Position numbers and translations under genes: made by a program. From the IMG/VR virus record IMGVR_UViG_2718218100_000010: a DNA stretch of 51,912 bases. One strand, given 5' to 3'. Source of the stretch: a virus (lineage: Duplodnaviria > Heunggongvirae > Uroviricota > Caudoviricetes). Numbering within the stretch: the first letter of the stretch is position 1; each line of letters starts with the position of its first letter. The notes under the pieces are model-generated. The model had not been told where the DNA came from. It worked only from the letters and a program-made list of their open reading frames with translations, and did not search any database. This document shows, piece by piece, positions 35,410 through 37,587 of the stretch.

Positions 35410-35895
35410 TTAGTTTTGCTGTTCTATTTTAAGCTTGATAGTTTCATACAAAACAATAGTTGCGCCTGTTTTACATAATTCCCGGCTGTCATACGCGCGA
35501 GACCAATAACACAACCAGTTCTCGAGATCTTCTCGGGTATAGGTTTTGCAGGCCAGCCCCTCTGCCATTTCCACGATTTCATCGCCTGGTGCTGTTAACT
35601 CATAGCCATTCAACAACAAGAAGACGTAACCAGCCATCATAGCTGTTCGTTTGTTCGCATTAGCAAACGGATGATTCTGAATCAGACTTTCAATCAATAC
35701 CGATGCCAGTACAAACATGTCATTGATCTGTTCATACCATCGAACCATGCTGGGACGGGCCTGAGAAGAACTTAAGTTATCTGGACTCAGAACACCAACA
35801 GGTTCATCTGGTGTTTGAAGCTCAATTAAAAGGCGATTGATTTCAGTAAGATCATCAACCGAAAGATAGTGCACTCCTTCAACAATCTCAGCCAT
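35410..35895 (-). CDS. Doc-family (Fic-fold) toxin-like protein, 161 aa
   Basis: Doc-type active-site motif HPFANANKRTA; ATG MAEIVEG in frame with the track's TTG start at 35904. Confidence 0.65.
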   Translation of the reverse strand: MAEIVEGVHYLSVDDLTEINRLLIELQTPDEPVGVLSPDNLSSSQARPSMVRWYEQINDMFVLASVLIESLIQNHPFANANKRTAMMAGYVFLLLNGYELTAPGDEIVEMAEGLACKTYTREDLENWLCYWSRAYDSRELCKTGATIVLYETIKLKIEQQN

Positions 35896-35913
35896 AGAGC
35901 ACAATACCCATTA

Positions 35914-36093
35914 TTACACTTTTGAAAGTTCTTCCATTGCCTTCTCGTAACGAGAAAAACCGAAATCGAAAGCATTTTTCACCTGCTCACGATGCGTGCA
36001 ATTTTCATCAATAGCCGGGCGCGGAGCTGCCACAACGCTTTTATCGCGAGGGGGAATAGTCAATCGCGGGTGTTTTTTTAGTGCGTAGCTCAT
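35914..36093 (-). CDS. Candidate antitoxin partner of the Doc-like toxin, 59 aa (not Phd-like)
   Basis: Hand translation MSYALKKHPRLTIPPRDKSVVAAPRPAIDENCTHREQVKNAFDFGFSRYEKAMEELSKV; stop about 18 nt before the Doc ATG; imperfect inverted repeat aggctaatgttgttagcatagcct upstream. Confidence 0.4.
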   Translation of the reverse strand: MSYALKKHPRLTIPPRDKSVVAAPRPAIDENCTHREQVKNAFDFGFSRYEKAMEELSKV

Positions 36094-36213
36094 TGGGTGT
36101 ACCCTTACTTCTCCGTCCTGTTCTTTAACAAAAAATCAAGTCAATACAAAATTAGTCAGGCTAATGTTGTTAGCATAGCCTAATACCAATCGTATTCACA
36201 ACCACAGTACGTG

Positions 36214-36236
36214 AAAAAACCCGCCGAAGCGGGTTT
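36214..36236 (-). terminator. Intrinsic terminator after hok (copy 2 of the identical 23-nt repeat)
   Basis: aaaaaacccgccgaagcgggttt, identical to 35372-35394. Confidence 0.6.
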
Positions 36237-36303
36237 AGTGCGGGTGCGTTGAGGATGCCTGACACATGAGAGGTGGCGAGGGATTTCTCCCCCGCCTGGT
36301 CTC

Positions 36304-36459
36304 TTACTCCTCAGATTCGTAAGCTGTGAAGACAGCGACCTCCGTCTGGCCGGTTCGGATTCGTACCTCGCAGAGGTCTTTCCTCGTTACCAGTGCCGTC
36401 ACTATGACGGTTAAACAGATGACGATCAGGGCGATTAACATCGCCTTTTGCTGCTTCAT
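36304..36459 (-). CDS. hokD: Hok/Gef-family type I toxin, 51 aa (HokD/RelF-like)
   Basis: MKQQKAMLIALIVICLTVIVTALVTRKDLCEVRIRTGQTEVAVFTAYESEE; AAGGAG RBS; the track ORF 36304..36516 includes the upstream mok-like extension. Confidence 0.8.
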   Translation of the reverse strand: MKQQKAMLIALIVICLTVIVTALVTRKDLCEVRIRTGQTEVAVFTAYESEE

Positions 36460-36704
36460 AGCCTGCTTCTCCTTGCCTTTCGGCGCGTAAGAGGCTAACC
36501 TACATGTGCAAGTCATAGATATGGCCTCAGATTAATGTTAAGCGTCTTGCCGGACGCGTAATGTTAACTGGGGCTTTTCTCTATCTGCCGTTGGTGTTCA
36601 TGCCCGAGGCAGATAGCCTCAAGCACCCGCAGCAATTCTACTTAACTCTCGCTTTACCGCAAACCGTTTTTACCCGATATGGGAATTCCCATATCGTAAT
36701 GAAT

Positions 36705-36809
36705 TCAGTTCCCTAGTCGATCCATCAAAAACACAACCAGGCAGTAAACGCCCACAACAGCAATAACAGCCAGCGCACCTTCCATTGCCAGTGAAATATC
36801 ATCCGACAT
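36705..36809 (-). CDS. Candidate 34-aa hydrophobic peptide
   Basis: Strong SD AAAGGAGGGAAT-ATG; hand translation MSDDISLAMEGALAVIAVVGVYCLVVFLMDRLGN with a single TM helix. Confidence 0.35.
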   Translation of the reverse strand: MSDDISLAMEGALAVIAVVGVYCLVVFLMDRLGN

Positions 36810-36844
36810 ATTCCCTCCTTTGGTGTTAATCCCGGCGAACGTTT

Positions 36845-36928
36845 TTACCCCCACCGACAAATAACATATACTAAAAAAGCGATAGCCATAGCAACGCCTG
36901 TAATTGCAAATGCTTCAGGCCAGTTCAT
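36845..36928 (-). CDS. Candidate 27-aa hydrophobic peptide, translationally coupled to the upstream 220-aa gene
   Basis: GGAGGT RBS; ATG overlaps the upstream stop (ATGA); hand translation MNWPEAFAITGVAMAIAFLVYVICRWG. Confidence 0.3.
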   Translation of the reverse strand: MNWPEAFAITGVAMAIAFLVYVICRWG

Positions 36929-37587
36929 TGGCGCACCTCCTGCGGCGGTTCTGGTAGCGGCATCCAGTCGGTTACATTGCGGCTCTGTGTTTCGAAAAAT
37001 TCATCACCATCACGGACTACATCAAAAAACTCACCGTCTCGATATTGCGCATAAAGAACGAATGCGCCATCACATAAAATAATTACGTGCTGACCGTCAT
37101 CCGGCATTCGCTCACTACAGCTTATCCAACCATCCAGAGTTACCGGATAGTTGGTTGACGTTTCCGAGATTTCCCGAAAATTATTGGTTGACGAATCTTT
37201 ATTTTCCCGAAAGTTTCCGGACTGAAGCATGGCTTCGCGGCAATCGTTCCAGCCTGTAGCGTATGCAGCCGCTTTGCTGCTGCCTTCAACTGGCGCATCC
37301 TGCCAATACATTTCTTCCGGCACTATCGGCGCTGGAGGGGCGGCAAATAGATATCCGCCAAAGTCAGGAAGCTCTCCAATGGCCTGTACGAACTTTTGTT
37401 TGCCTACGTCAACTCCTAATGGGTAATGAGCTATAATCTTTGCCACCGGCTCTGCTTCCAGCGATACCAGTGCAATTCGTGCCAGTTCTTCCGCTTCTTC
37501 TGCTGGCAGTACAACGTTGCTACCCGGTCCGTATGTTTCGCGCCACTGCTTGATTGTCAGCAGTCGCCCTTTGGTAATAGTGATCAT
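36925..37587 (-). CDS. Phage protein of unknown function (DUF551-like C-terminus?), 220 aa
   Basis: Acidic C-terminal region ...DGEFFDVVRDGDEFFETQSRNVTDWMPLPEPPQE; family assignment from memory only. Confidence 0.5.
   Translation of the reverse strand: MITITKGRLLTIKQWRETYGPGSNVVLPAEEAEELARIALVSLEAEPVAKIIAHYPLGVDVGKQKFVQAIGELPDFGGYLFAAPPAPIVPEEMYWQDAPVEGSSKAAAYATGWNDCREAMLQSGNFRENKDSSTNNFREISETSTNYPVTLDGWISCSERMPDDGQHVIILCDGAFVLYAQYRDGEFFDVVRDGDEFFETQSRNVTDWMPLPEPPQEVRQ

Follow-up and report, generated by a model that had tools for sequence, protein, structure and literature searches.

p27, a conserved stop-start-coupled microprotein gene of phage early regions, and its neighbours p34 and hok/sok in a lambdoid prophage

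The hokW-sokW locus, which is found in the Stx2 phage 933W and in prophage Sp5 of Escherichia coli Sakai, has been shown by experiment to be a toxin-antitoxin system in which the toxicity of Hok is neutralised by Sok (PMC8621323). A relative of this locus is present in the IMG/VR virus record IMGVR_UViG_2718218100_000010, a DNA of 51,912 nucleotides from a virus of the Caudoviricetes, which over its whole length is here called the window. The hok gene of the window with its mok-like extension, an open reading frame (ORF) of 34 codons (p34), one of 27 codons (p27) and a gene with a DUF551 domain are all encoded on the minus strand. The predicted products of p27 and p34 are compared below with MgtS, AcrZ, KdpF and CydX, which are membrane microproteins modulating larger membrane proteins.

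A first-pass annotation of this DNA had described p27 and p34 as two unannotated hydrophobic micro-ORFs that precede a Hok toxin, and the coordinates and motifs that it gave (GGAGGT, the ATGA overlap and AAAGGAGGGAAT) are all present. The best explanation of the region as a whole, which we consider probable, is that it would be made of three independent mosaic modules in the early operon of a lambdoid prophage, namely a standard hok/sok locus and the genes p27 and p34 for two accessory inner-membrane microproteins. Since hok/sok and p34 are already known, they add little, and the understanding of type I toxin-antitoxin systems is unchanged. The useful result is p27, a conserved family of stop-start-coupled microproteins that lies outside the curated families. 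It is a new, well-supported phage small membrane protein with a modular architecture coupled to the stop codon of the preceding gene, and it offers a clear-cut test for the annotation of small proteins as well as a candidate route to the function of DUF551/Ea-type early genes.

The p27 gene and its coupling to the preceding gene

The p27 micro-ORF (MNWPEAFAITGVAMAIAFLVYVICRWG; 36845..36928, minus strand) is preceded by the DUF551-domain gene (36925..37587, minus strand), which encodes 220 residues in the ORF list, matches Pfam DUF551 with E = 1.1e-20 and is named DUF551 domain-containing protein by the Prokaryotic Genome Annotation Pipeline (PGAP). The ATG of p27 (36926-36928) overlaps the TGA of the DUF551 gene (36925-36927), forming ATGA and coupling the micro-ORF to the gene upstream. 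The Shine-Dalgarno sequence of p27, GGAGGT (36935..36940, minus strand), lies 6 nt before its ATG, within the last codons of the DUF551 gene.

Flanking sequence was sufficient at 175 loci. These gave 61 distinct nucleotide alleles of p27, 56 of which are intact, encode 36 protein variants and cover 165 of the 175 loci. Every one of the 56 intact alleles has exactly 27 codons, the ATGA start and the same stop position, and in 52 of them a Shine-Dalgarno core lies no more than 20 nt before the start. Met1, Trp3, Pro4, Ala6, Gly11, Cys24, Arg25 and Trp26 are invariant or nearly so. Their codons are not fixed in the same way: five synonymous codons are used for Arg25, four for Gly11 and three for Ala6, and the wobble position is variable in 24 of the 27 codons, being fixed only in Met1, Trp3 and Ile23. 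The codon of Trp26 is altered in one allele only, which has Cys. The ratio of nonsynonymous to synonymous substitution (dN/dS) is 0.21 at a dS of about 0.95, by the method of Nei and Gojobori (NG86). The family can be defined by its 27 codons, the pattern M-x-W-P-[ED]-A ... [IV]-C-R-W-G, the ATGA overlap and a Shine-Dalgarno sequence 6-8 nt upstream, and the allele of the window fits this definition. Judged by this pattern of conservation, p27 is a genuine protein gene of 27 residues. A minority of alleles are decayed, their third codon being TAG or their codon 26 TGA.

The gene is not annotated in the RefSeq records examined, as the first-pass annotation had said, and GenBank names it in scattered records only, with ‘bacteriophage protein’ and ‘prophage protein’ among the names given. 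No match to p27 was found in Pfam, PHROG, NCBIfam, PADLOC or PDB. Homologues with 55-70% identity were found by tblastn in 92 phage records, among them Stx and other lambdoid phages and a lytic phage, Av-05 of the Vequintavirinae. The gene is also present in 196 plasmid records, mostly non-mobilizable replicons of 85-110 kb from E. coli and Salmonella, where it lies beside DUF551 or eaa genes; these replicons are presumably similar to phage-plasmids of the P1 or SSU5 kind. A homologue sought downstream of yfdS in the CPS-53 prophage of E. coli K-12 was not there. Apparent fusions of p27 to DUF551 proteins (121-185 aa) and of p34 to a xanthine dehydrogenase (789 aa), which came from clusters at 90% identity, were rejected as a clustering artefact, the peptides not being in those sequences.

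The conserved unit begins a few codons before the stop codon of the upstream gene. The Shine-Dalgarno region, CAGGAGGTG(A/C)(A/G)(T/C)CAATGA, also encodes the C-terminus of the preceding protein, so that the p27 module writes protein ends such as ...QEVNQ*, QEVRQ*, QKVNQ* and KGMNQ* (36929-36943 of the window and the homologous sites of loci L002-L250). Unrelated early proteins share this C-terminal pentapeptide because they carry the p27 module. The proteins preceding p27 belong to at least four unrelated groups, which are the DUF551/Ea-type mosaics, proteins of the 933W L0139 type, a protein of Av-05 and a 61-aa protein. When the window is compared with 933W, the p27 ORF alone aligns (70% identity) and its flanks are unalignable. 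Such an island of similarity behind unrelated genes points to a small module that is complete in itself and is expressed through termination-reinitiation coupling. The module, with its own Shine-Dalgarno sequence, ATGA and 27 codons, would be grafted onto the 3’ end of a preceding early gene, usually of DUF551/Ea type, and p27 would be translated by termination-reinitiation whenever that gene is translated.

The overlap could also be read in another way, in which p27 is mainly a C-terminal membrane anchor that is fused to the DUF551/Ea protein by a -1 ribosomal frameshift before the stop codon. The p27 frame is indeed -1 relative to the upstream gene, it is open for at least 16-18 codons before the ATG in some alleles (as in the calls of 43-45 aa in GenBank), and the internal Shine-Dalgarno sequence is just upstream. 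However, a slippery heptamer is not evident in the conserved context ending in CAATGA, the contexts upstream of p27 differ widely, and the invariant ATG with optimal Shine-Dalgarno spacing argues for independent reinitiation. A frameshifted anchor is considered extremely unlikely, and p27 as a separately initiated protein is retained.

The p34 gene

The second micro-ORF, p34 (MSDDISLAMEGALAVIAVVGVYCLVVFLMDRLGN; 36705..36809, minus strand), starts 35 nt after the end of p27, and its Shine-Dalgarno region, AAAGGAGGGAAT (36810..36821, minus strand), abuts its ATG. The description of both micro-ORFs as unannotated does not hold for this one. In the RefSeq record identical to the window it is WP_001278450.1, named ‘hypothetical protein’, and the exact sequence is present on about 984 contigs. 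In prophage Sp6 of strain Sakai it is ECs_5710 (YP_009502606.1), with 100% identity over the 34 aa, and the order of genes there is as in the window, with ECs_1518, a homologous gene of DUF551 type, followed by p27, ECs_5710 and mok/hok.

The p34 ORF was also reported by Huecker et al. (2017) as the novel translated gene XECs145, from RNA-seq and ribosome profiling of E. coli O157:H7 Sakai (PMC5597208). The values given there for growth in lysogeny broth are 79 reads per kilobase per million (RPKM) in the transcriptome and 346 in the translatome, with a ribosome coverage value (RCV) of 4.35 and a coverage of 0.99, while in brain-heart infusion the translatome RPKM is 150 and the RCV 1.14, and under combined stress translation is almost nil (PMC5597208). 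The same source predicts an inner-membrane protein with one transmembrane helix (PMC5597208). The published version of XECs145 has 54 codons and starts at an ATG further upstream, in overlap with the end of p27 (PMC5597208), whereas the call in the window has 34 codons; the shorter version is favoured by PGAP and by the conserved Shine-Dalgarno sequence. Translation of the 34-aa ORF, which the first-pass annotation had proposed for examination by ribosome profiling, is supported by these published profiles. A full-text literature search with both peptide sequences returned no paper.

Two subfamilies of p34 are distinguished. Members of subfamily A have 34 aa, an ATG start and the Shine-Dalgarno sequence AAAGGAGGGAAT, which is kept in all alleles but one single-base variant (L085). 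Members of subfamily B, such as that of phage Tritos, have 30 aa and a GTG start behind CAGGAGG. The two share 44-50% protein identity, with Leu7, Leu13, Ala14, Val18, Tyr22, Cys23, Leu24, Leu28 and Leu32 invariant. Of the 23 distinct alleles, 21 have an open sense frame, and no other frame is open in all; the remaining two have a common stop two codons before the normal end. The NG86 dN/dS is 0.22 within subfamily A, 0.42 within subfamily B and about 0.33 between them, at a dS of about 1.1. With its own strong ribosome-binding site, p34 is a real protein gene of 34 residues. The first-pass annotation had let its case for the small ORFs depend on substitution patterns and on conservation among related prophages, and here it has fared well, as the ratios of both p27 (0.21) and p34 (0.22-0.42) indicate coding, and both ORFs are conserved across many diverged loci with constraint at the amino-acid level.

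Relatives of p34 are few. A single-sequence search among 1.84 billion proteins gave seven close representatives, and a scan with one genome per species gave five loci, which are those of Escherichia ruysiae, Shigella flexneri and three short contigs of metagenome-assembled genomes labelled Collinsella, Scatousia and Haemophilus. A terminator-like match inside p34 was set aside, being at chance level. In a minority of alleles p34 is decayed by the late stop or is left as a C-terminal remnant (...MDHLSD in L025). The decay of p27, p34 and hok in a minority of alleles (those of L150, L047, L163, L025 and some metagenome loci) is read as the ordinary erosion of cryptic prophages.

The hok/mok/sok locus

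The hok gene (36304-36459, minus strand) encodes 51 aa, with its ATG at 36457-36459, and lies within a mok-like frame of 70 aa (36304..36516, minus strand) that starts in frame at the ATG at 36516 and ends at the common stop, a layout that is the same as that of annotated mokW. The 70-aa frame matches Pfam HOK_GEF (PF01848) with E = 2.9e-23 and 81.6 bits (cut-off 22), in agreement with the HokD-like toxin with a mok-like extension that had been named in the first-pass annotation; hokD is also its PGAP name in records that have 100% identity to the window. The Rfam model of the sok/hok leader (RF01794) scores 108.4 bits at 36454-36628 (gathering threshold 59). The annotated sokW of 933W aligns over the mok start at 36508..36578 on the plus strand, which by this alignment places a putative Sok-type antisense RNA inside the interval 36460-36700 where one had been suggested. 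The hok mRNA of about 415 nt (36212..36628, minus strand) runs from a 5’ tac element through mok/hok to a 3’ fbi element and terminator. Its fold has a z-score of -7.59, and in the minimum-free-energy structure the 5’ GGGUGCUUGAGG is paired with the 3’ CCUCAACGCACCC, which corresponds to the tac-fbi arrangement typical of hok mRNAs.

The transcript probably starts at GGGUGCUUGAGG, at about 36628 and about 75 nt after p34, behind a putative -10 hexamer, TAGAAT (36635..36640, minus strand), to which the start of the Rfam leader model and the conservation with 933W and Tritos point. The simple sigma-70 promoter scan reported no site on the coding strand; as it also missed the hok promoter, it is uninformative on the transcription of p27 and p34.

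By these comparisons the hok/mok/sok of the window belongs to the HokW/HokD lineage and is an ordinary type I toxin-antitoxin locus. Over 436 nt it shares 94% nucleotide identity with the hokW-sokW of 933W, and its Hok has a single difference, Ser49 instead of Pro49, from the HokW-lineage allele that is most frequent in the sample. With hokW-sokW and the chromosomal hokD (relF) lineage of the Hok/Gef family it shares the 51-aa Hok, the in-frame mok extension, a sok antisense RNA that lies across the mok start and an mRNA of about 415 nt with tac-fbi pairing. Unlike hokW-sokW, it is located in a rightward nin-type region, between the DUF551 gene and a Doc-type pair and with p34 ahead of it, and the first ~15 nt of its sok region differ from those of 933W at several positions.

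Two further features overlap the locus. Sub-threshold Rfam matches to isrK (30.6 bits, gathering threshold 50) and rsmX at 36214-36301 on the minus strand probably represent the 3’ end of the hok mRNA, with its fbi element and terminator, the likeness being only that of the terminator hairpin. An ORF of 51 aa on the plus strand (36561-36716), antisense to the hok leader and present in a shorter version in phage Tritos, is most likely no gene but a reflection of the conservation of the hok leader and sok region.

Independence of the three modules and candidate roles of p27 and p34

The linkage of the micro-ORFs to hok was evaluated in 103 hok loci of mixed origin with at least 600 nt of upstream sequence. 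Both micro-ORFs are present at 28 of them, p27 only at 24, p34 only at 14 and neither at 37, so that 61 of the 103 have no p34; about 45 p27 loci, in turn, have no hok. Upstream of the hok loci that lack both p27 and p34, no other hydrophobic micro-ORF consistently takes their place. At loci L122-124 and L182 the homology over p27 and p34 stops exactly at the hok promoter and hok is replaced, and p34 is kept where hok has an internal deletion (L163) or is absent (the Shigella locus L168). Tritos and the window are 95% identical from the hok promoter onward and about 75% identical over the core of p34, a difference that indicates a recombination joint between p34 and hok. On this comparison of loci hok/sok, p27 and p34 are three separate mosaic modules, each of which is found without the others.

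The products of p27 and p34 would be single-span inner-membrane helices made from the phage early operon, and each would pack against a larger host or phage membrane protein and modify its activity. The prediction of single transmembrane helices in the first-pass annotation agrees with the mean Kyte-Doolittle hydropathy of the best 19-residue stretch, 2.45 in p27 and 2.72 in p34, and with the AlphaFold2 model of p34, a single helix over residues 3-33 with a predicted local distance difference test (pLDDT) score of 90.6; both micro-ORFs are real and probably translated. Like MgtS, AcrZ, KdpF and CydX, both peptides have fewer than 50 residues, one hydrophobic helix and ordinary translation signals. 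They also have, as such microproteins do, a helix face of small residues, formed by Gly11, Ala13, Ala15 and Ala17 in p27 and by Gly11, Ala14, Ala17 and Gly20 in p34. In both a conserved Cys is near one end of the helix. Unlike members of one family, p27 and p34 share no sequence homology with those microproteins, and the likeness concerns the mode of action only.

The first-pass annotation had proposed that the two peptides could be additional membrane-active toxins or modulators. Short, very hydrophobic, single-helix products encoded beside two toxin-antitoxin modules would suit small type I-like membrane toxins or holin-like killers, and in size and hydrophobicity p27 and p34 resemble the enterobacterial type I toxins Ldr, Ibs, ShoB, TisB, DinQ and ZorO. 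Weak sigma-70-like matches on the opposite strand, at 36785-36812 and 36844-36872, could be promoters of antisense transcripts. These promoter-like matches are at chance level, however, with 5 seen against 2.4 +/- 1.4 expected, and the Rfam scan found no RNA over p27 or p34. Type I toxin mRNAs are translationally locked, whereas p27 is coupled to an ordinary early gene, and the mRNA over both starts (36770-36960) folds with a z-score of -0.63, against -7.6 for the hok mRNA, leaving the strong Shine-Dalgarno sequences unsequestered. Neither peptide matches toxin or defence families or antitoxin RNAs in Pfam, NCBIfam, PHROG, PADLOC or Rfam or has a relative in PDB, so that p27 and p34 differ from the listed toxins in toxin-family match, detected antisense RNA and locked mRNA alike. 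The p34 ORF, as XECs145, is translated at high density in exponentially growing Sakai cells according to the published profiles (PMC5597208), and p27 is also carried by a lytic phage and by many phage-plasmid-like replicons with no hok nearby. A toxic role for one or both micro-ORFs is on these grounds quite unlikely; nothing marks either as a type I toxin, and we do not think that either is a component of the Hok system. The proposal of toxins is at odds with the open ribosome-binding sites, the lack of a toxin-family match and the good translation of p34 in growing cells. A role as modulators of larger membrane proteins is favoured by analogy, and the micro-ORFs are not read as parts of the hok system.

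Several observations weigh against the reading of three independent modules with two accessory microproteins. The loci were gathered by homology to hok, DUF551, p27 or p34, which biases the linkage counts and brings in many close relatives. In each of its two subfamilies, deeply diverged as they are, p34 immediately precedes hok, and among 69 evaluable loci chosen by p34 alone 67 have a full hok. An antisense frame of p27 that has its wobble positions in common with the sense frame is open in all alleles, with the same dN/dS. No ORF of less than 93 nt is among the entries considered from the table of the published small-gene screen (PMC5597208), and the translation of p27 is predicted from its sequence. 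The last step, modulation of a larger membrane protein by p27 and p34, is proposed by analogy with the described microproteins.

The position of p34 bears on whether it is a partner of Hok, modulating the insertion or toxicity of Hok or insulating the hok promoter. In subfamily A p34 precedes the hok ATG by 248-249 nt and in subfamily B by 214 nt, the two subfamilies being so far apart in sequence, the p34 family is limited to Escherichia and Shigella prophages, and a perfect palindrome separates p34 from the hok promoter. A functional tie between p34 and Hok is possible. The loci selected by p34 are, however, mostly near-identical copies of one block, and the linkage is therefore largely one of descent, with a recombination joint between the two genes. 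In 933W, whose homology to the window begins right after the palindrome, p34 is missing, and hokW-sokW is functional in this arrangement, which is that of 933W and Sp5 (PMC8621323). As p34 is also lacking from most of the 103 hok loci and persists where hok is replaced, internally deleted or absent, a partnership with Hok is judged unlikely, and separate modules remain the preferred explanation.

The open antisense frame of p27 bears on another reading, in which the ORFs are non-coding and are conserved for nucleic-acid reasons, such as recombination joints, promoter or terminator signals or antisense transcripts, or occur by chance in sequence rich in hydrophobic codons. The presence of neither p27 nor p34 in any curated protein family would agree with it, as would the few alleles with premature stops. 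Because the antisense frame is open with the same ratio, which is to be expected of a frame with common wobble positions, dN/dS alone does not fix the strand of p27. The strand is assigned by the conservation of start, stop and Shine-Dalgarno sequence, by the fixed wobble bases of the Trp and Met codons and by the antisense frame itself, which has no start-initiated ORF in 35 of the 56 intact alleles and none in the window; the fixed third bases of the Trp3 and Met1 codons are not explicable by that frame. The start, stop, length and Shine-Dalgarno sequence of p27 are conserved in 56 alleles behind unrelated genes, its invariant residues use up to five synonymous codons, and two of its three fixed wobble positions are those of Met1 and Trp3. 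In p34 no frame but the sense one stays open, the dN/dS is 0.2-0.4, and in the values published for XECs145 99% of the ORF is covered by ribosome footprints (PMC5597208). Non-coding conservation of the micro-ORFs is accordingly very unlikely, and both are taken as protein genes.

A joint variant can also be formulated, in which p27 is an overlooked microprotein made in a fixed ratio with its host gene, perhaps as an anchor or partner of the DUF551/Ea protein, while p34 tunes Hok. If true, it would mean that the early region of enterobacterial phages holds a small membrane-targeting toolkit; the chance given to this combination is small.

The palindrome between the p34 stop and the hok promoter (CGATATGGGAATTCCCATATCG; 36675..36696) is a perfect one of 22 nt, seen both in the sequence and in its fold. 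It has a central EcoRI site and forms a 9-bp hairpin with no U tract. It moves with the subfamily-A p34 module, is absent from 933W and may serve to bind a protein or to insulate transcription.

The order of genes in the region is replication genes, an Ea22-like gene, DUF551, p27, p34, hok/sok, a Doc-type toxin-antitoxin pair, nin-like genes and Q. The Doc-type pair (35410-36093, minus strand) is directly downstream of hok and consists of a protein of 59 aa, which matches phrog_2208 and nothing in Pfam, and then a Fic/Doc ‘death-on-curing’ toxin of 164 aa, an order that places two addiction-type modules side by side in the nin-like region.

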